A DNA stretch of 59,832 nt, counting the filler, from Fonticula-like sp. SCN 57-25 (lineage: Eukaryota), in NCBI GenBank assembly GCA_001724245.1. It is 9 parts of 9 records of this genome, joined end to end, with 100 filler letters (N's around TTAATTAATTAA, not from the genome) between each part and the next. Parts side by side here need not be neighbours in the genome. Positions count along the whole stretch, not along the records: positions 13,401 to 19,980 come from MEDX01000433.1; 8 more parts are not named here. One strand, written 5' to 3'. A model generated the notes under the pieces. That model searched no databases. It saw nothing but the letters and a program-made list of their open reading frames with translations, and had not been told where the DNA came from. A program made the translations under genes and the position numbers. Position 1 is the stretch's first letter; every line of letters begins with the position of its first letter. Positions 6,619-45,482 of this stretch are shown here, piece after piece.

Positions 6619-6718
6619 NNNNNNNNNNNNNNNNNNNNNNNNNNNNNNNNNNNNNNNNNNNNTTAATTAATTAANNNNNNNNNNNNNNNNNNNNNNNNNN
6701 NNNNNNNNNNNNNNNNNN
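6619..6718. other. artificial contig spacer
   Basis: 100 nt: N run, TTAATTAATTAA (stops in six frames), N run. Confidence 0.99.
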
Positions 6719-13300: not shown

Positions 13301-13400
13301 NNNNNNNNNNNNNNNNNNNNNNNNNNNNNNNNNNNNNNNNNNNNTTAATTAATTAANNNNNNNNNNNNNNNNNNNNNNNNNNNNNNNNNNNNNNNNNNNN
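13301..13400. other. artificial contig spacer
   Basis: N run, TTAATTAATTAA, N run. Confidence 0.99.
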
Positions 13401-13651: not shown

Positions 13652-16600
13652 CTAGGCAGACGCGCGGACGGCGCGGTGCACGACGAGCGGCAGGTTCGGC
13701 AGCGCCTCAAAGAGCACCGCCAGCGCGCCCGGAACAAACATGGTCAAGTCCCAGAAAGGCGCCCACGTGGGCCCGTCGGAGTCGCGCGAGACCGCCGCGG
13801 CGGCCACGAACGCGTCGCGCACCGCAGGGTCGATCGCCATCGCCTTGTCGGCGAGCGCCGTCGCACAGCGGAGAATGCCGAGCGGGTCGGTGCCAATGTC
13901 GGCGGGCAGGCCGAGCGAGCCAATCAGATCGTCGAACGCGACAGTCGGGACGGCGGCCGCGACGGCGGCGGTCCAATCGCCGTCGACGCCGTCGACGCCC
14001 TCCTTGAGCGCGGCGCGGATCGCGTCCTGGCGGTCGGCGGGCAGCCACAGGGCAGCGTTGAACGCATCCATGGTCCCCTGCGCAGAGCAGAAGAACGGGT
14101 GCGCGAGAACGTCGGCGAGCGACGGCCGCTTTTCCGGGTCGCGTGCAATCATGGCGCAGACGAGGTCCTGCGCGAGCGGCATTGCGCAGAGGCGCGACAG
14201 GTCGTGCAGGCCGTCCATGATGTTTGCCTCGCGCTTGAGCTTGCCGCCCGTCTCGAACGGGTGGAAGCCGCCAGTGAGGATGTAGTACGCGAGGCAGCCC
14301 GCGGCAAACACGTCCACCTTGACCGTCTTGCGCTCGCCGGCGAGCACTTCGGGCGCAAAGTAGCCGCCGAGGCCGGACGGGACGGCGCCAGTGTTGTCGC
14401 CGCTGCGGAAGGAGAAAGAGTGCTGGCCGTCGGAGAGGGCAAGGGCGAGGCCCATGTCGGCGATCTTGACCTTGTAGTCGGCGGTCAGGAGGACATTGCC
14501 GGGCTTGAGGTCGTTGTGCACAATGCTGTTCTCGTGGAGGAACTGGACGCCGAGCAGGACAGAGCGAAGCAGCTCGCGGGAAGGCGCGCGCGGAAGCCAA
14601 ATGACCGTCTCGTAAAGCGGGCCGGCAAACTGCTGCAGCTTGGCGTCGTCCATGCCGGCGATGCCGGGGCAGCTGTAGTACATGCGCAGCTGCGACAGCT
14701 GCGAGCGGCACTGGTGCACGAGCTTTTGCAGCGTGAGGTGCATGCGCTCCATCGCAAGGAAGCAAAAGTCTTCATTCTCCTCCTTGCCATAGTAGCGCAC
14801 AACGTGCTCGCTGCCCGACTTGCCGGTATCGTCCGCGTCGAGCATCGACAGCAGCAGCTTGATCTCGGCGTCGATCGCCGACGACGTCTCCATCTTTGGG
14901 ATGCGCTTGATGGCAGCGGGGACGCCGCCGTAAAAGCCCTCGTAGACGAGTGTGCCGTGGCTGCCGCTGCCGAGACGCACGCTCTTGTTGTACGTGATCT
15001 TGCCAATGCTCGTGATGCGGCGGTCCTGCGACATCTGCGCCGAGGCGGGCGTCGCGCCGGCCGCCTTCTTGGGCTTGCGGGCGGCGCCGGGCGGGGGGCC
15101 CTGCTGCTGCTGCATCATCATCATCGGCTGCGACTGCACCGGCGACGGCTGCATGTGCATCATGCCGCCGACGAGGCCGCCAGGGACGGACCCGGCAGCG
15201 ATGGCTGCAGCAATGGCCGCGGGGCTTGGCAGCATCGACGGCGGCGGTGCGACAGACAGGTCCATGAGCGGCGCCGCCACAGCCGCCGCGCCCGTGGTGA
15301 GGTTGGCCATGCGCATGGCGAGGACGTTGTCCGGGATGGTGCGCGAGAGGCTCTCGATGACGCGCGCGACCTTGTCGAGGCGCTGCATGCGCGCGAGGTC
15401 GGCCGCGGTCTTGCCGTTGACGGTGCGCAGGTGCGGGTTGGCGTTGTACTGCATGAGCAGCTCAATGACGTTGATGCGGCCGCCCGTCGCGGCGAGCATG
15501 AGCGCCGTGGCGCCGTTGGACACGCCCGCAATGTTGGGGTTGGCGCCGTGCGACAGCAGCAGCGACGCGCTTGCGTAGAGGCCGCGGCCGGCGGCAAACA
15601 TGAGCGCAGTCCAGCCGTTCTCGTCGCGCGCGTTGAGAATGTAGGAAATGTCGACGACATGGCGGCGCGCCTCCTGGATGAGCAGGAGGATGCAGTCCTC
15701 GCGGCCGTTCATGGCGGCGGCCAGGAGCGGCGTGACGGGGCGGAACGCCGACGGCTTGTCGAGCGAGGCGCCGTGCGCGAGCAGCATCGCGACAATACCG
15801 ACGGCGCCCATGCTGCACGCGACGAGCAGCGGCGAGCCCGACCGCATCGAGTCGACATTGACGGCCGCGCGGCGCGACAGCAGCACGCGAACAACGTCCT
15901 CGCGCGCGGTGCGGCACGCGTAGATGAGCGCGCTCTCGCCATTGTTATCCTGCGCGTTGACGTCGGCACCGCCAACGTCAATGAGCCACTCGACGACGGC
16001 GCGGCGGCCGTTCTCTGCCGCCTGCATCAGCGCGGTCGCGCCCTGCGGGTCGCGGCACATGTTGGCGCTAACGCCCCAGCCAATAAGGAGCGACACGACG
16101 CTCAGGTGACCGTGCGATGCCGCCACGTGCACGGCGGGCGTGGGCGTGCCGAGCTTTTCGAGCGGCGTCGCGTAGGCAAGCATGTTTGGCGTGTGCGGCA
16201 TCATGACGCCGAGCTGCACCTTGGCGGCAGCGGCGAGCGCCTCGCAGAGGGCGGGCTTGCCGCGCGCCGCGGCGTACGTCAGCGCGGTGCAGTCGTCAGA
16301 CGACACGGCGCGAACGTCGGCGCCGCGCGCGAGCAGCATGCGAAAGGCCAGCTCGCTGCCCGTGTTGGCCGCGTACATGAGCGACGTTTCCTGCTTCCAG
16401 TTGCGCGCATTCACGTCAACGCCAGCGTCGAGCAGCACCTGCACTACAGCGTCCTGGCCGCCAATCGTCGCCATCATGAGCGGCGTAAAGCCGTCGGAAG
16501 GGTTCTGGTAGTCACCCTTGGCGCCGGCGTCGAGCAGCGCGCGCGTCGTGATCGGGTTGCACGAGACGACGGCGTACTGCAGCGCAGACATGCCCATCTT

Positions 16601-17228
16601 GTCGCGCGCGTTCACGTCGGCGCCGTGCTCGACAAGGTACGAAACGACGGGCGCGTGCGAGTTGACCAGCGCCGCCATCAGAGGGGTGCGGCCGTACGCG
16701 TCGCTGCGGTTGACAACGGAAGACGACGGGCGGCGGGTAAAGATCGACTCCATGCCAAAGGGGGTGGAGAACAGGGAGCCGTTCGGCGTGTCCTCGGAAG
16801 GCTGCTGGCCGACAAGGGCATCCACGGCGTGGAGGTCGCCGCGCGCGCACGCCTCAAAGAGAGGGTCACCGGTAAAGTCGATCGACATGACGCCTTGACC
16901 GGCGACGATCGAGCGGAAGCCAGCGGCATCGGTGGACGATGGCGAAAATAGCTCCGCATCAGAGGCGTACTGGTGCTCGTCCGCCTCCAAAAATTGCTCA
17001 GAATCGCTCTGCTCGTTAGACGAGGGATCTACAGGCAGAAAAAGGTCAGCAAAAGAGAGTAAAAGATTCGGCTCGAATCGTACCTGACTGGCGGCGGCCG
17101 ACGCCGATAGGGGGCGGCCGCGGCGCATCGAGAGGGGACGAGCCAAAAAGGAACGGAACCTCGGTCGGGTCCGGCGGCGACGAGCTCATCCGCGGAAAGG
17201 ACTGACTGGGAGGAGGCATTGTGTACAT
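13652..17228 (-). CDS. ankyrin-repeat IRE1-family kinase with degenerate C-terminal KEN-like domain (RNase L-like architecture)
   Basis: About 14 ANK repeats; kinase LGSGSHGTLVYEG, AAIKR, HVVRYYG, HNDLKPGN, DMG, GQHSFSFRSG, FAPE, HPFF; ATG at 17228 with one intron near 17030-17083. Confidence 0.9.
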
Positions 17229-17893: not shown

Positions 17894-19980
17894 TTAGGCC
17901 CGCCGAGAGGGCGGCTGCGGCTGCCACACATTAACATCTTCGTCGGCGTCATCTTCGGCGTCCACAATAGCGCGCGCTAGCGACTCGCCCACAGAAAAGG
18001 CAGCGGCTTCGCTTGGCAATGAAGCCGACCAGAGGCTGCCGCCCAGGCTGCTGCCCGTCCACGACGACCACCCGTCGCGCTCGACAGGCGGGGCCGACGA
18101 GGCCGACCATATCTGTGACGAGGCGGCCGGCGCGCTCCCAATAGTAGAAAAGGACCACGACGAGGCGCCGGGAAGGCCGCCGGAAAAGATGCCAAACTCA
18201 GAGTAGGACGGCGTGGGCGCGGCAGAGGCCTGTTGTGGAAGCTGCTCCGGCGCGAGCGCGGCCGCCGACAGCACCGGCGCGACCACTGGCGCGACCACTG
18301 GGATCGAGGCGCTGCCGTACATTGGAGGGCGATAGCCGGTCGCCGTGTTGAGCGCGGGGCGCACAAAGGGAAAGGCAGGGCCGGTTGTAGGCGGCGGGGC
18401 GGGCCGCGCGGCAAAGGCGCCTGACGATGGCGGTGGCCGCGACATCAGCGAAGGCCGCACAGATGGCCGCACGGGGGCCTCTACAAAGGCGGGCGCGGCG
18501 GCGGGCATCTGCACGGGAAGAGCTGCTGGTGGTGCAAAAGATGGCGCCTGCTGCTGGATCGGCGGCTGAAACGGCTGCTGACTCGGCAAAGCGGCGGGGA
18601 TGGGAGCGGGTTGCGCGTCGGCCTGCGATGCGCTCGCCGCTTCCGCCGCCTGGCGCCGACGCCGACGCCGCGCCTTGCTGTCCAATACCTCACCATCATT
18701 CTCGGTAGGCGGCGTGGGCGCAGCAGCGGGTGCAGCGGCGGGAACCGTCGCCTTTTTGGCCGGCGCAGCCGCCGACTTTTGCAATGAAGCCTGCTGCTGT
18801 TGCTTCTTGGCAAGTGCCTGGCGCTCCGCAGCTTCCTGCTTTTGCCGCTCGACCTCTTGCCGTTGCCGCTCGGCCTCCTGCTTTTGCCGCTCGGCCTCCT
18901 GCTTTTGCCGCTCGGCCTCCTGCTTTTGCCGCTCGGCCTCCAGCTTTTGACGTTCGGCCTCTTTCCGCGCCTTGGCCGCCTCGGCCGCCTTGAAGAGCGC
19001 CTCTTCCTCTGCGCGCCGCTTCATCTCAGCCATTTCAAGCCTCTTTTGCCTCGCCTCGTCCTCTGCCTTGCGCTTGAGCTGCTCAGCCTCTTCCTGCTTC
19101 CGCTTCTCCTCCTCCTTTTGCTTGGCCTCCTGCTCGCGCTTCTGCTGCAAGGCGAGGCGCTTTCGCTCATTCTTGTCCTGCTTCCTCTGCTTCTTGTCGC
19201 GCTCCTGTCGCTCCTTTTCCTCCTCCTCTTCGATCAGAGCGCGCTGACGAGCCTCGGCGATCGCCGTCCTGTACGCGGCCATGACGCGCCCCTCAAACAT
19301 CATGGCCGCCAGCGACTGGAACATGCGGCGGCCTTCTTCCAGCTGCATCTCCTCTGCCCGCTCGTCCTCGTCCTGATCGTCGATCGCGTCGTCCTCCTCA
19401 TTATAATCCTCGTACTCGTCCTCGTCAATCTGGTCGCGCTGCCGCTGAGAGGCTAGCTGGTCCATCAGCTCCATAAAGCGGTGCCCATCGTTTCGAAGAA
19501 GATCGTCTGCAACGGTGAGAACGCCGCCTCGGACGGTGAAATTGCTCGTTAAAAGTGCGTCGGCGCCGTCGTCGGCCGAGTACGGGAAGAGCGACCGCGC
19601 GCTCGAGCCGGCGTCGGCAGACGCCTCCACTTGGTCATTGTAGTGGTCAAACAAGCTCTCAAGCTCCTCTTCTACCAAAATTCTATAAATATAGGGTTAG
19701 ACAGTGCATCCAATTGCGCGCGCCGTTCGTACCGCTGCGAGCCGCACTCGGCGCAGGTGCACCCAAACTTTTTCTGCTCGCGCATCTTGCGAAAAATGGC
19801 GTCCTTTTCGATGCGCAGCAACGACCGCCGCTCGCTCTCCTGCAACGACTGCCAAAACTCTTCTAGCCGCGTGCGGTCAACATTGTCCACATCCTCCTTC
19901 CAAATGTCCACCTTGCTCGAGCGGCCCTTGCTCTTTTCGCGCGAGGACGCGGCCGGCTGCGCGCTAACCGGCGCCGACAG
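17894..19980 (-). CDS. NST1: stress response protein Nst1 (5' partial)
   Basis: [77 protein letters not shown]; long charged coiled coil. Confidence 0.9.
18830..18958 (-). repeat. 21-bp coding tandem repeat (QKQEAER)n in Nst1
   Basis: gcttttgccgctcggcctcct repeated. Confidence 0.85.
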
Positions 19981-20080
19981 NNNNNNNNNNNNNNNNNNNN
20001 NNNNNNNNNNNNNNNNNNNNNNNNTTAATTAATTAANNNNNNNNNNNNNNNNNNNNNNNNNNNNNNNNNNNNNNNNNNNN
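19981..20080. other. artificial contig spacer
   Basis: N run, TTAATTAATTAA, N run. Confidence 0.99.
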
Positions 20081-22346: not shown

Positions 22347-25022
22347 ATGGGAGGCGGCAGGCCGCAACTGCTCCTTCTTCTCTGTGCACTATTTCTCGGT
22401 GCAACACTAGTAAACGGAGGCGGCTTTGACGGTGCACATGACGACGACGTTTTAGTTGCGCTATCGCTGGATGGCCAGCTTACAGGATTCGGGTACGTAT
22501 GCCAACCCGTCGTTCAAGATTACTGACCGGCCGCAGGCTTGACGGTGTAAGGCGGTGGAGCTTCCATGGCGGCTATCTTTCGCACACGCCGACGTACCAG
22601 GAAATGGACCCTGACGCCACCACAATCCTGATTCCCGGCCTCGCGTCGGGCGAGCTCATCAACGTCACTGCTGGTCAACCTCCGGTGCTCATGGAGCAGG
22701 GGATAGCCGAGCTCATGGGCGCGGCGCATCTTTTAAGCACGCCCACGGTCAAGGCGACCTCCTTCCTCCGCTCGACCGACCTCACGATAGATATGGACTT
22801 GGGTTTTGTTTCGAGCCACGTGGATTGCCTTTCCGACGATGACGATTGCGGCGCCGAGGTCCCGGGCACGCAGGGCGATGCGTACGTCGTCGAGGGCGAG
22901 TACGAGGACGACGAGGAAATGGACAGAGTTACTGCCACCTATTCAGGAATGCGTCTCCCGACAAAGCGCCACTTTGAGCTGCGCCGCATCGAGTACACCA
23001 TCGCCTTCCAGAAGAAGCGTCAGACAACGTGCGAACCCTTTTTTCCTTTCTCTTTCCGCCCACTGACGCGCGCCGCAGGTGGTCTACGCGCTTTGTCCTG
23101 TACGAGCCCATGGTGCCGAACGACCCCCCCGCCTACCAGCGCGCCCTCATCGACCACGCTCTCGGCAAGGTGAGCAACGATCTCCCCGCGCCCGTGCACT
23201 CCATCTACTACGTCGCCAATGGCAACGTGTCAAAGCACCAGCTGATCACCTCGCTGCACGACGAGGCGGTAGACGGCGCTTTATCGATGGACCTGTCCAG
23301 CGCATCGACTGTGCTGCTGCAGAACAGCGCCACTTCCGGACTGTCTTTTCTTCCGCGGTCTGCCCTTGCCCGGCTCCCTGGCCCGCTCTCGCTGGAGGAC
23401 GGCGCCGACGCCGACGGCGACAAGACGACGACCGCCGTGCAGCTGCTGGACGCGCCGTCCTTTTGGTCCGCCGCCGGGAAACCCGAGATGTCCCTCGCGA
23501 ACCGCTTTTCGCGCAGCGCGCTCGTCGCGGTCACGCGCGCCGTCTCGCTGGCGGAGATCAACGCGCCGCCCGCCTCGTCGCACCAAGGCTCGCTCATGGC
23601 GGGAGTCGTCATTGGCCTGCTCGCGTCCATGTCGCTGCTCGCGGCGGCCCTCGGTATAGCAACCGTGCGGCGCAGGGCGCGCACTTACGAAGGCAGCGTC
23701 CCGCTCACCGACGACCCGCACAACCCGCTCGTGTACTTTCCGGAAAAAGTTCTCGGTACGCGGCGATCGACACCGTCGTAACACTGACTCATCGTTTTGT
23801 TTTTTAAGGGAGCGGGAGCGAAGGCGTTGTGTTTGAAGGTATGCTGAGCGACCGCAAAGTTGCCGTGAAGCGCCTCCCCGTGCATGCGTGGCCGCGAGCC
23901 GATCATGAGATCAAGATACTTCAAAAGATCGACGGGAGCAACGACATTATTCGGTACTTTGCGCAAGTAAAGACGCCCGAATTTATCTTTGTTGCGATCG
24001 AGCTGTGCCACAAGTCGCTGTTTGACCTTATTCACAGCCCGGTTCCCCCCAATGCGCCTCTCCACTGGAACGGCGAGCGCCTCGTCGTTAATGACAAGCT
24101 TAGCCTCGGCGCGCGCGAGCTGCTGCTCCCCATCATGCGCGCGCTCGTCGCGCTGCACGAGAGGTCCATGGTCCACCGCGACGTCAAGCCGCACAACATC
24201 CTCGTCGACGTCAACGGCAAGGTGGTTCTGTCCGACTTTGGGCTGAGCCGCACGCTGCGGCAGGGCGAGGCGGCGCACAAGACGACCGCGCGGGCAGGTA
24301 GCTTCGCGTGGCGCGCGCCGGAAGTGGCCGCCGCGGTCGGCGACGTGAAGGTGTCCGTCTCGCTCGCGTCCGACATTTTCAGCATGGGCTGCGTGATACA
24401 CTACGTGGCGACGAACGGCGTTCACGCATTTGGGGAGGCGGCCATGATGGGCATCATTGAAGAAAGGAATCGCGTTAGGGACGGCGCCGCCGAGAGCGCG
24501 GCCTACAGGAGGACGGCCGACGTCGTGCGGCGGATGACGGCGTGGCAGCCCGGCGGGCGCATCAACGCAGCGGAGGCGCTCGAGCACCCGTTTTTCTGGA
24601 CCGACAAGGGGAGGCTCGACTTCCTGGTTGAGGCGAGTGCGTTCCTAAACAGCAAGCCAGAGACAGTGGCGAGCAAGCTGGCGTTTGATGAGGTAGACAA
24701 GCGCAACCGGGCCATTGTGGGCGACGACTGGAGCCAAAAAATTCACCCTTTGCTTTGGGAAAACTTGAGGGGACCAAAGGGGCGTGGGTACAATATTAAA
24801 TCCACGTCGCAGCTCGTGGCGGCGATCAGGAACAAGAGCGCGCACTATCACGAGCTGCCAGAGGAAATCGTGGCGCTGTTTACGCCGCACGGGTTGCTGT
24901 ACTACTTTGAGGAGCGGTTTCCTTTGCTGTTCATGCAAGTGTACAATGTGATGTTGACGTGCGCGCCAACCGACGTGTCGACAAGATTGCTGAACGCAGG
25001 ATTGGGATTGCCGAATCAGTGA
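22347..25022 (+). CDS. IRE1: IRE1 ER-stress sensor kinase/endoribonuclease
   Basis: Signal peptide, luminal LSLDGQLTG..G.RRWSF motif, TM helix, kinase (GSGSEG, VAVKR, HRDVKPHN, DFG, WRAPE), KEN with IRNKSAHY and RFPLL; three introns. Confidence 0.92.
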
Positions 25023-27033: not shown

Positions 27034-28208
27034 ATGGCGGCGCCGTTCGAGGATTGGTACCGCTCGGTCCCTCCAGTGACTCGCTTTTACGCGACCGGCG
27101 CGGTGATCACTACACTGGCATGCGTACGAGCATTCATATCGTTAAACGTTATATTGACCGGTGCTTAGCATATCAAAGTAATTTCGCCGTTTGATCTCTA
27201 CCTCAATGCGAATCTCGTATGGAGCCAGCATCAGGTGCGCCCTGCCGCTCTGCCGATTGGCGCAACGCTCACCCTGCGCTTTACAGTACTGGAGATTGAT
27301 CACCAATTTTTTCTTCCTAGGCACGTTGAATGTCGACTTTCTGTTTCATCTCTTTTTCTTGTGCGTCACTGCCATCACCCGCCGCTCGGCTAACGCGTGC
27401 ATGCAGCGTGCGGTATAGCCGAGATTTAGAAGAGGGGACGTTTAGGAACCGAACGTCCGACTTTGTATTTATGATTATGTTTGGTTGTACTCTAATGACG
27501 GTGCGCCTCTGCCCTTGGCTTGTTGCGCGATCTGATGTAATTGCAGCTGATCGCGTTCGCCCAAGTCGTCAATCTCATGTTCCTCAGCCACTCGCTCACC
27601 TTTATGCTCGTCTATCTCTGGTCCAAGAAGAACCCGAACGCGCCAGTACGAATATATATCTTTTGGTATGCTTTGCTAAGATATTGGCGTGCTTAGATCA
27701 GCTTCCTCGGCATGTTCCAGTTCACCGCCAAGTGGCTGCCTTGGGCGCTCCTCCTGCTCACCATGACGTTCAATAACACTGTGCCCACGACCGGTACGCC
27801 GCTCGTCAATATTATACCTTTATATTGACGCGATTTCAGACTTGGTTGGCATTTTGGTGGGCGGCGTCTACTTTTACTGCGCCGAGGTGCACCCTCGTCG
27901 CTACAACCGCGTCATGCTCCGCACGCCGCGCATCCTGTACGTGCATGTTCTTCTCGCGCAATGTGCTAATATATGTGCCTTCTTTGCAGGAAGCGCCTTT
28001 TCGACGCGCCCGAGGACGACTTTGTGGCCGAGCCGGTGGCGGCCAACCCGGGCGGCTTTGGTTGGGGTGCGCATTGCGCACTTTCACGGCGTTGCACTAA
28101 CATGCGCGCTTAGGCAATGGGCAGCCGGCGGACGAAGACGCGCCGCTCAACATGGATGCTGCGCAGCCCGCGCCGCAGCACGACAACAACTCGGACAACG
28201 AGGACTAG
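27034..28208 (+). CDS. DER1: derlin (ERAD rhomboid pseudoprotease), about 8 introns
   Basis: WYRSVPPVTRFY, QYWRLITNFFFLG, RYSRDLEEGTFRNRTSDF, YLWSKKNP, LPWALL, DLVGILVG, LRTPRIL. Confidence 0.92.
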
Positions 28209-43821: not shown

Positions 43822-45482
43822 ATGCTCTCCAAGGACAATGAGTACAGGATTAAAAGCACGATCTCTGGATTTGCATCGGGAGCTGCAACACAGTTTGTGC
43901 TTCACCCAATAGATTCCATAAAAACCAGACTACAAGGTCAGTTCTACAACAATTGGGTTTTAACCATCTTCTTCCCTGTAACTGTGCATGTTTACTTGCA
44001 TAATATGTGAAAATGTGTTGTGTTCCAATGTTTGCAACAATGTGTGAAATGTGATGGCTTGTGATTATAACTTGTGATTATACCTTGTGTAAAAACTTTT
44101 GTGATAACTTTTGTGAAACTGTGTTGTGCAACAATTTGTGTGAAACCGTGCTGTGTGAAAACTTTTCAATTCCTTGTGTGTCCAGCGCAGGGCCGAGGAG
44201 AGCGCGCACATGTGGGTGTGCGAGCGTCATACCGCTCCCTTTCCCACATTTTGCAGCAGGAGGGCTGGCGCGCGCTGTACCAGGGTGTCGGACCAGCGTC
44301 GTTTGCAGGTTCTCTCTCCTGGGGCCTCTACTTCACCGTCTACAATTCGTCCAAGACTGCATATGCCAGAATGTACTTTGGTGGTTCTGGTAGTGGTGGT
44401 AGTGGTGGTTCTGCTAATGGTGCTGGTGGTTCTGCTAATGGTTCTGGTTCTGCTGGTGGTGAGAATCGCAAGGAGGATATCCCTAGTGTGTACTTGCTGC
44501 TTGCCGGGCTGAAGGCTGGAGTGGCCACACTTGCAGTCACTCACCCTCTGTGGCTCATCAAGCTGCGCATGCAGTTGCAGCAGAGGAACTTGAGTAGCAG
44601 CAGCAGCAGTGACACGGCTCATCTCACTTGCTATAGGAACACATTTGGTATGCGAGTTAACTGGTGCAGTTTGTGGTGGGTGTTGTCATTACTGGTGTTA
44701 TTGCTGTTTCTATTGTTTCTATTGTTGTTATTGTTGTTAGGGTAGTATATGTCTTTAATCTATTGCAATTGCTGTTGTTATTACTGGTGTTGTTGCTATT
44801 GATGCTGTTGTTCGGGTAGTAATTTTGTAATCTATTGTGATTGTTGTTGTTATTACTAGTATTGTTACTGGTATTGTTGCTACTGTTGTTGTTATTATTG
44901 TTACTATTATTATTGGTATTTCCTGCTTACTGCTAAAAAACTGTACAGATGGGTTCAAGCAAATTGTTCAGAAAGAGGGATTCAAGGGTCTCTACGTTGG
45001 TATTGTACCAGCACTTTGGCTCACCTCTCATGGCGCCATTCACTTTGTCTCCTATGATAAGCTCAAAAGTTTCTATACTCGCAGTTTCAGTCCTCGCAAT
45101 TCTTCTGCACAATTGGTAGGTAGATGGAGATGTTTGAACACATTTGCTCATCTGTTGCACACTTTGGTACTTCACCTAGAATCCAGCAGAATCTCTCATC
45201 ATTGGTGGGGTTACCAAGATACTGGCAGCAGTTGTCACATATCCACTACAAGTGATCAAAACTCGTCTGCAAGATGAGCGTAATAAGTATGGAAAGATTA
45301 GATACAGCGGAATGATTGATGCCATACACCAAATGTTCAAAATGGAGGGCGTAGGAGCGTTCTTCCGTGGTATCATCCCACACGCACTTCGTGTGACACC
45401 ACAAGCTGCTGTCACACTCATGCTCTACGAGCAGGTGATGAAGACACTGAACAATGTGACACCAGAAGAGTTTTTTGAGTAG
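43822..45482 (+). CDS. mitochondrial folate/FAD carrier-like (SLC25A32/Flx1 type)
   Basis: HPIDSIKTRLQ, SWGLYF..Y, THPLWLIKLRMQLQ, SHGAIHFVSYDKLK, YPLQVIKTRLQ, RVTPQAAVT; Gly/Ser insertion; GT-rich introns. Confidence 0.85.

Follow-up and report, generated by a model that had tools for sequence, protein, structure and literature searches.

RNase L carries nine ankyrin (ANK) repeats, whilst canonical IRE1 proteins (ERN1/Ire1p) have a luminal sensor and a transmembrane segment ahead of their kinase. RNase L has been dated to jawed vertebrates, and outside it ANK repeats occur in several proteins with kinase and KEN domains, probably through independent gains (PMC10400998); ANK fusions to kinase plus KEN outside RNase L are also described in PMC3710099. 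The IRE family of Dictyostelium has seven members, all with RNase(L) domains, of which only IreA is membrane-bound (PMC1420674). Here we describe a gene from Fonticula-like sp. SCN 57-25 (assembly GCA_001724245.1), found in a stretch of 59,832 nucleotides, called the window below, in which nine parts of the assembly are joined end to end. Its product, ANK-kinase, combines ankyrin repeats, an IRE-type kinase with a full set of catalytic residues, and a helical tail that stands where relatives carry the KEN RNase.

ANK-kinase resembles RNase L in the order of its parts, i.e. ankyrin repeats, an IRE-type kinase fold and a helical domain at the KEN position (PMC10400998). It differs in its catalytic logic, which is reversed: here it is the RNase that has lost its residues, whilst the kinase has kept them. 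The repeat numbers also differ, with about 14 in ANK-kinase against the two to four Pfam ANK hits given for RNase L (PMC10400998). We compared the protein by phmmer with all PDB sequences and examined the best 60 of 2299 matches. The best 16 were IRE1 chains (E 9.5e-40 to 5.2e-33), the next was PLK1 (9.6e-24), and RNase L was absent from these 60. An earlier note, made from the DNA alone, had called the protein RNase L-like; the likeness in order stands, but with IRE1 at the head of the PDB list kinship is unsupported. Judged by sequence there is no sign of close kinship with RNase L, and the two proteins appear to share an order of domains without a tie by descent.

The coordinates of the gene and its parts are given in Table 1. 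Measured from stop to stop, the open frame covers 13652-17185; the end coordinate proposed before, 17228, is out of frame and hits stops, whilst every motif quoted with it was found in ANK-kinase and in the IRE1 encoded in the same window. Contigs taken from four further metagenome runs, one per study, gave at least 40 single-base differences within the gene (40 listed, and one more exists). Among those listed, 35 of 40 are synonymous and 35 of 40 fall at codon position 3 of the minus-strand frame. The ANK-kinase frame is under purifying selection.

The open reading frame (ORF) could in principle be an artefact: a pseudogene in decay, a chimera of metagenome assembly, or a frame that is open by chance in GC-rich DNA. 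The DNA is metagenomic in origin: the 18 runs listed as holding at least part of the stretch, from 17 studies, are metagenomes (bioreactor, aquatic, wastewater, 'fungus' and soil) except for one with a coded organism name. There is also an open frame of 1114 codons on the opposite strand over the gene, a shadow frame of the kind that GC-rich genes usually have. The synonymous share of the variants and their bias to codon position 3 rule out a chance frame and a decaying pseudogene. The contigs from the four studies together span parts of all domains, and the protein collection holds two further full-length proteins (P0269 and P0270), near-identical alleles of ANK-kinase that are too similar to inform on conservation. 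An artefact is hardly credible on this evidence, and the variant data already largely refute it. No RNA run containing the stretch is on record among 21 runs listed, which has no bearing on expression.

Table 1. Features of the ANK-kinase gene and of the rest of the window, with the listed single-base variants assigned to each part of the gene
Feature	Position	Strand	Content or evidence	Synonymous variants	Nonsynonymous variants
Whole coding sequence of ANK-kinase (P0001)	13652..17128	-	1158 codons + stop (ORF list and translation); ATG at 17128, stop 13652-13654, product 1158 aa		
N-terminal 85 residues, low complexity	16874..17128	-	no Pfam domain; none of the 8 top hydropathy windows lies here	1	1
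Ankyrin-repeat region, residues 86-600	15329..16873	-	about 14 repeats in two blocks, break near 300-330; Ank_2 E 6.1e-75, Ank E 1.3e-62	10	2
Linker, residues 601-708 (108 residues)	15005..15328	-	rich in Ala/Pro/Met/Gln; A 20%, P 14%, M 11%	6	0
IRE-family kinase domain, residues 709-1013	14090..15004	-	Pfam Pkinase, residues 713-1013, E 4.7e-33	14	1
C-terminal tail, residues 1014-1158 (145 aa)	13655..14089	-	all-alpha, about 8 helices, 23% Ala; at the position of the relatives' KEN RNase	4	1 (C1088F)
Window IRE1	23808-25022	+	Pkinase 7.1e-36, Ribonuc_2-5A 6.1e-22, intact RNxxxxH		
Gene upstream of ANK-kinase	17894-19474	-	526-aa low-complexity protein, tandem EAERQKQ-type repeats, Pro/Ala-rich tail, no Pfam match		
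Der1-like fragment	27330-27776	+	ER-associated degradation (ERAD)		
Mitochondrial carrier repeats	44071-45277	+	split over two open frames		

The kinase domain retains more than the Lys, catalytic Asp (HND) and DMG Asp that had been noted in it, as the full canonical set is present: K741, E755, H871-N-D873, N878, D891-M-G and the APE Glu, E927. In an alignment of 99 sequences the VAIK Lys, the alphaC Glu, the HxD Asp, the catalytic-loop Asn, the DxG Asp and APE occupy invariant or near-invariant columns. The Ser-rich activation loop, GQHSFSFRSG, aligns with GRHSFSRRSG of human IRE1, a sequence that had been quoted before and is confirmed by the PDB alignment. About 45 residues are inserted between residues 805 and 850. 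On these motifs the kinase is apparently active.

The canonical IRE1 proteins, including the copy in the window, share with ANK-kinase the kinase family, the Ser-rich loop and a kinase that ends in HPFF and leads into a helical domain. They differ in that ANK-kinase has no luminal sensor or transmembrane segment, reads HND rather than HRD in the catalytic loop, and has no detectable KEN domain or KEN catalytic residues. The two kinases of the window are only 29% identical (E 6e-32), so we take them to be old paralogues.

To place the protein, residues 691-1158 were searched exhaustively with HMMER against 1.84 billion representatives. This returned 227 proteins at E <= 1e-30, of which the best ones after the query itself were IRE-like. 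Ribonuc_2-5A was found at E <= 0.001 in 23 of the 29 high-ranking relatives scanned with Pfam, and ankyrin repeats in none of the 29. A KEN profile built from 61 relatives of this search matched 128 of 150 relatives at E <= 1e-3, the remaining 22 being mostly truncated or multi-kinase proteins. The sole orthologue in the collections is P0121, a fragment of 434 residues that is 52% identical, has HND and DMG, and ends eight residues past the kinase.

For the trees, kinase domains were aligned to a profile, and 11 proteins were excluded because they covered under 200 profile positions. FastTree was run on 152 sequences and 259 columns, rooted on seven non-IRE kinases; IQ-TREE (LG+G4, 1000 ultrafast bootstraps) was run on 66 sequences, comprising the 25 members of the clade around ANK-kinase, 24 random others, six canonical sequences (where not already picked) and 12 of the outgroup clade. 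FastTree gave supports of 0.96 for ANK-kinase with P0121, 0.86 on adding P0248, P0237 and P0209, and 0.83 for the 25-tip clade. The ultrafast bootstrap values were 100 for ANK-kinase with P0121, 85 on adding P0202, 80 for the 25-tip clade and 88 for the split of IRE-like sequences from outgroups, within which ANK-kinase is nested. On these kinase alignments the support for the 25-tip clade (0.83 and 80) is moderate, and on the immediate sister of ANK-kinase plus P0121 the two programs disagree. Both trees, neither of which contains an RNase L sequence, set ANK-kinase in the IRE family among proteins with kinase and KEN domains.

Two features mark the 25-tip clade. All 25 members lack the Arg of HRD (non-RD), with 19 HND, 2 HGD, 2 HCD, 1 HAD and 1 HNN, whereas 111 of 115 IRE-like sequences outside the clade have HRD. 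An N-terminal hydropathy window of at least 2.2 occurs in only one of the 25, and there it is the ANK helix of ANK-kinase itself, against 61 of the 85 IRE-like proteins outside the clade whose kinase is preceded by more than 300 residues. By its kinase sequence, then, ANK-kinase is part of a branch of the IRE kinase family whose members are non-RD and have no membrane anchor. Those with a named source are proteins of dictyostelids, of one more amoebozoan and of Pigoraptor, a relative of animals (Acytostelium, Tieghemostelium, Clastostelium and Pigoraptor vietnamica). This agrees with the Dictyostelium kinome, where IreA alone among the seven IRE-family members is membrane-bound (PMC1420674). 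These soluble paralogues resemble ANK-kinase in having no membrane anchor, in their non-RD HND loop and in falling within the same 25-tip clade. They differ in two respects: all seven Dictyostelium members have an RNase(L) domain whilst ANK-kinase has no detectable KEN domain or RNase motif, and the 14 ANK repeats of ANK-kinase compare with a weak ANK signal in a single Acytostelium member, P0152.

Four further membrane-free, non-RD IRE-like kinases have tails without the KEN motif: P0127, P0133 (WW domain plus IRE-type kinase), P0209 (TPR plus IRE-type kinase) and P0248. The clade relative P0237 keeps the KEN motif, which P0133, P0209 and P0248 do not. The non-RD clade as a whole suggests repeated swaps of sensor modules and repeated loss of the RNase.

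In ANK-kinase, the Pfam ankyrin families span residues ~90-590. A regular expression found 12 repeat cores spaced by 33-34 residues, and two degenerate repeats (near residues 88 and 330) were recognised by eye, which gives 14 and agrees with the number first proposed. The linker that follows is probably disordered. A hydropathy scan found no signal-peptide-like hydrophobic core in the N-terminal 85 residues (no dedicated signal-peptide predictor was applied). The highest 19-residue window of the protein, at 2.24, lies within an ANK repeat; the linker maximum is 1.56 and has Gly and Pro inside it, and the scan gave no convincing transmembrane segment outside the ANK helix. The earlier view of the protein as an IRE1-family derivative without a membrane anchor or transmembrane helix is thus upheld by PDB matches, trees and hydropathy. 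Its location is most likely cytosolic.

Among 276 proteins, the only match to the ANK region was P0202, a metagenomic protein of 696 aa with 7 cluster members. It has ankyrin repeats, an IRE-type pseudokinase (HNN, DLV) and a KEN domain with an intact RNxxxxH; its gene call begins within an ANK repeat and may thus lack the true N-terminus. The solved structures closest to its kinase and KEN are those of IRE1 (yeast Ire1 best, E 7e-46), and the 60 matches listed contain no RNase L. P0202 resembles ANK-kinase in carrying ankyrin repeats N-terminal to an IRE-type kinase and in its IQ-TREE position as sister to ANK-kinase plus P0121, a relation that FastTree did not recover and that makes it possibly the sister of our protein. 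The decay is opposite: in P0202 it is the kinase that has HNN and DLV, and the KEN domain keeps RNxxxxH. We read P0202 as a second, independent RNase-L-like design.

P0202 bears on whether the kinase of ANK-kinase might itself be dead. If the non-RD kinase bound nucleotide without phosphate transfer, both catalytic domains would be inactive and the protein would act as a scaffold. The Arg of HRD is indeed replaced by Asn, the possible sister is a clear pseudokinase, and RNase L is an example of an IRE-type kinase fold that works without catalysis (PMC10400998). Yet the Lys, the Glu, the catalytic Asp, the Asn and the Mg-binding DxG Asp are all retained; HND is the majority state (19 of 25) of a clade that otherwise keeps these residues; and the kinase variants are 14 synonymous to 1 nonsynonymous. 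We consider a dead kinase improbable.

The reading that we favour, and hold to be somewhat probable as a whole, is that ANK-kinase is a soluble IRE1 paralogue of the non-RD, membrane-free branch, with ankyrin repeats in place of sensor and anchor, kinase residues kept, and a helical tail that is most likely a degenerate KEN domain which would not cut RNA. What speaks for a KEN origin of the tail is, first, its place: its position and length equal those of KEN, and MAFFT sets it collinear with KEN, with the HPFF end, a Trp, an L-R pair, a Pro and a hydrophobic FxxLPxL in the same order. In this placement, which carries no statistical support, the KEN R, N and H positions are T1090, A1091 and K1095, and no Tyr stands at the upstream Tyr. 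The tail has no R-N-x4-H motif, so the loss of the RNase residues that had been reported holds. The single nonsynonymous tail variant, C1088F (position 13866, codon 1088), adjoins the Arg of the L-R pair that MAFFT aligned to the conserved LLR of KEN and was seen in one low-depth contig.

The second line of support, from structure prediction, is the helix pattern shared by two runs. The main AlphaFold2 run, on a 99-row alignment that includes KEN-bearing relatives, reached a mean predicted local distance difference test (pLDDT) score of 85.4, with the tail mostly at 79-97 and a dip to 55-63 at model residues 411-430. The best PDB matches of this model by Foldseek were all IRE1, from E 2.1e-21. 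Its tail helices span 316-327, 331-344, 352-359, 363-371, 382-394, 401-414, 431-442 and 446-457. Because rows of the main alignment carry KEN, we also ran a control on 7 relatives only, ending at or just past the kinase. The control likewise had eight helices, with boundaries within a few residues of those in the main model. It failed to recover the tail fold, and the tertiary fold is therefore without alignment-independent support; the KEN-like tail of the main model may have been inherited from the alignment. The structural check proposed before thus gave a KEN-like model with KEN rows and no confident tail without them. Finally, in the ESM Atlas the first cluster for residues 1010-1158 had PF06479 on 48% of its members (score 0.88) and another PF06479 cluster came third (0.86); for residues 1032-1158 the same cluster was again first (0.78), results that by the tool's calibration are leads only.

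Several observations weigh against the favoured reading. The chief one is that no sequence method detects KEN in the tail. PF06479 had no match in the last 182 residues even at E <= 1, the hidden Markov model (HMM) of KEN from the 61 relatives scored -2.4 bits, and hhalign of the tail against KEN gave a probability of 0.2%, with the observed score reached by 55 of 200 composition-preserving shuffles in global mode and 60 of 200 in local mode. BLASTP against the window's own IRE1 gave E 0.5, and phmmer against the tails of 133 relatives gave a best E of 0.022. A clade-specific tail HMM scored 1.4 bits, and its hhalign probability of 4.8% was limited to HPFF and the first helix. A tail-only word search among proteins of 81-261 aa found none at E <= 1, and none of 313 matches to tail patterns in JGI metagenome contigs was confirmed by tblastn. 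The by-eye alignment of the tail to the KEN of the window IRE1, on which the earlier note had relied, is accordingly not above chance by Pfam, our own HMMs, hhalign, shuffles or BLASTP. In the AlphaFold control the mean pLDDT fell to 66.7, with the tail at 34-54, and nothing beyond about model residues 327-361 superposed on the IRE1 KEN. For the second Atlas query the top family was shared by 3 of the 10 best family-bearing matches, at which level the tool regards the family as probably wrong. The 4:1 ratio of synonymous to nonsynonymous variants in the tail comes from five sites in low-depth contigs, too few alone. P0121 stops just after the kinase, and conservation of the ANK fusion and of the tail is seen only in near-identical alleles. 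Intact kinase motifs, in turn, are no proof of activity, and the data indicate no ligand, partner or substrate.

These results could mean that the KEN domain was lost and that an unrelated Ala-rich helical extension took its place, leaving an ankyrin-repeat kinase with an orphan C-terminal domain. Every sequence test is negative, shuffled tails score as well as the real one, the control without KEN rows misses the fold, and at 23% Ala a prediction of helices is cheap. An orphan domain would nevertheless have to sit exactly where 128 of 150 relatives carry KEN, at equal length, with helix boundaries that in the main model and the control alike agree with the threading on KEN; both Atlas queries, though weak in score, were led by a PF06479 cluster, and relatives show intermediate stages of KEN decay. 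On balance we think such a replacement unlikely, though worth keeping in view, and judge a KEN origin of the tail quite likely, having weighed position, length, helix pattern and the Atlas leads against sequence tests that found nothing and a control that failed. That the tail is instead an active RNase with a non-canonical active site seems very improbable. HEPN domains do diverge fast (PMC3710099), and our analysis yielded no data in support; none of R, N, H and the upstream Tyr is present where the alignment would put it, and R and H are required in KEN according to mutagenesis cited in PMC3710099.

A degenerate KEN domain would have counterparts. About 5% of KEN domains are without the catalytic motif, and RNA-binding roles have been proposed for motif-less HEPN domains (both PMC3710099). 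The tail of ANK-kinase resembles such non-catalytic HEPN/KEN domains in that the Rx4-6H motif is lost and a helical domain retained, the homology of the tail to HEPN/KEN being putative.

Under the favoured reading of ANK-kinase as a soluble IRE1 paralogue, the fourteen ankyrin repeats would replace the luminal sensor and the membrane anchor and form a platform that binds a partner protein or ligand. By analogy with IRE1 and RNase L, binding might bring kinase domains together, whereupon the IRE1-like serines of the activation loop could be phosphorylated in trans. The output would be phosphorylation of a substrate, not RNA cleavage, and the dead KEN remnant might help in dimerisation or regulation, or might bind RNA without cutting it. 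What the data show is the architecture, the placement in the family, the retention of the kinase residues, the absence of the RNase residues and the selection on the frame; that the kinase is active, that it dimerises, that the tail stems from KEN and that the ankyrin repeats have the role given above are inferences. A homodimer prediction for kinase plus tail, in which our own alignment was not used, was uninformative (0.00 twice against a mark of 0.32). The ligand-sensing, stress or antiviral role suggested before is unsupported, and none of the 51 other window ORFs that were scanned encodes an OAS/cGAS-type enzyme.

A bolder proposal is that ANK-kinase and P0202 both go back to a single IRE paralogue, already fused to ankyrin repeats, in unicellular relatives of fungi or animals and decayed in opposite directions, within a cytosolic, ankyrin-gated sensing system that arose independently of vertebrate OAS-RNase L and of which ANK-kinase would be the phosphorylation arm. 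We regard this as a long shot. If the common ancestry were true, P0202, having kept the RNase and lost the kinase, would have reached the RNase L solution independently, and ANK-kinase would have kept the kinase and lost the RNase.

The architecture was in part already described, as soluble IRE paralogues (PMC1420674) and fusions of ANK to kinase and KEN (PMC10400998, PMC3710099) are known. In our literature search we found no description of a protein with ankyrin repeats, an active IRE kinase and a dead KEN domain, which the supplementary tables of PMC10400998 and PMC3710099 might list. The survey in PMC10400998 searched with PF06479 and would for that reason have missed a protein like ANK-kinase. 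Our literature search also found no tested function for the soluble IRE paralogues of amoebae and unicellular opisthokonts.

The window P4-ATPase is 50-53% identical to many from early-diverging fungi and has no close relative. From the best matches of this one gene, rather than from a phylogeny, the source is probably a fungus-like opisthokont, and the lineage looks non-animal, as had been proposed. The window does hold a true IRE1 as well, with both Pfam domains (Table 1), about 6.7 kb from its ankyrin paralogue along the joined stretch and on the other strand. Its kinase begins at the start of the open frame, so the luminal and transmembrane part must lie in an upstream exon or frame; the three open frames upstream (22442-23781) gave no significant Pfam match. 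The Der1-like fragment lies about 2.3 kb downstream of this IRE1 along the joined stretch, and the adjacency of two genes of endoplasmic reticulum quality control is probably a coincidence. Elsewhere, P0002 (993 aa) is a canonical IRE1 with a PQQ-type luminal domain, kinase and KEN that has a CCCH zinc finger C-terminal to the RNase domain; a fusion of IRE1 and a CCCH zinc finger is mentioned in PMC3710099.

We considered and rejected a functional gene cluster around ANK-kinase, as the 51 other ORFs scanned are common housekeeping genes or lack a Pfam match. The mitochondrial carrier repeats lie in a stretch from 40 to 48 kb with 43-45% GC, far below the rest of the window, which suggests genes with introns there. 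Eight pairs of N blocks, 44 bases each and 704 N in all, recur every ~6.6 kb (6619-6718, 13301-13400, 19981-20080 and so on), none of them within the ANK-kinase ORF; they have the look of deliberate masking rather than of gaps in the assembly.

The kinase fold and KEN form one allosteric unit in IRE1 and in RNase L, and RNase L is the case of a dead kinase with a live RNase. ANK-kinase is at present one gene from an uncultured organism with one fragmentary orthologue. The same domain order with the opposite loss would make a useful comparison for the mutual dependence of the kinase and KEN halves, and would bear on the retention of pseudoenzyme domains as scaffolds. ANK-kinase is a new variant within a branch of the IRE family that is known yet unstudied, and joins the soluble IRE paralogues of amoebae and unicellular opisthokonts, on which little work exists.

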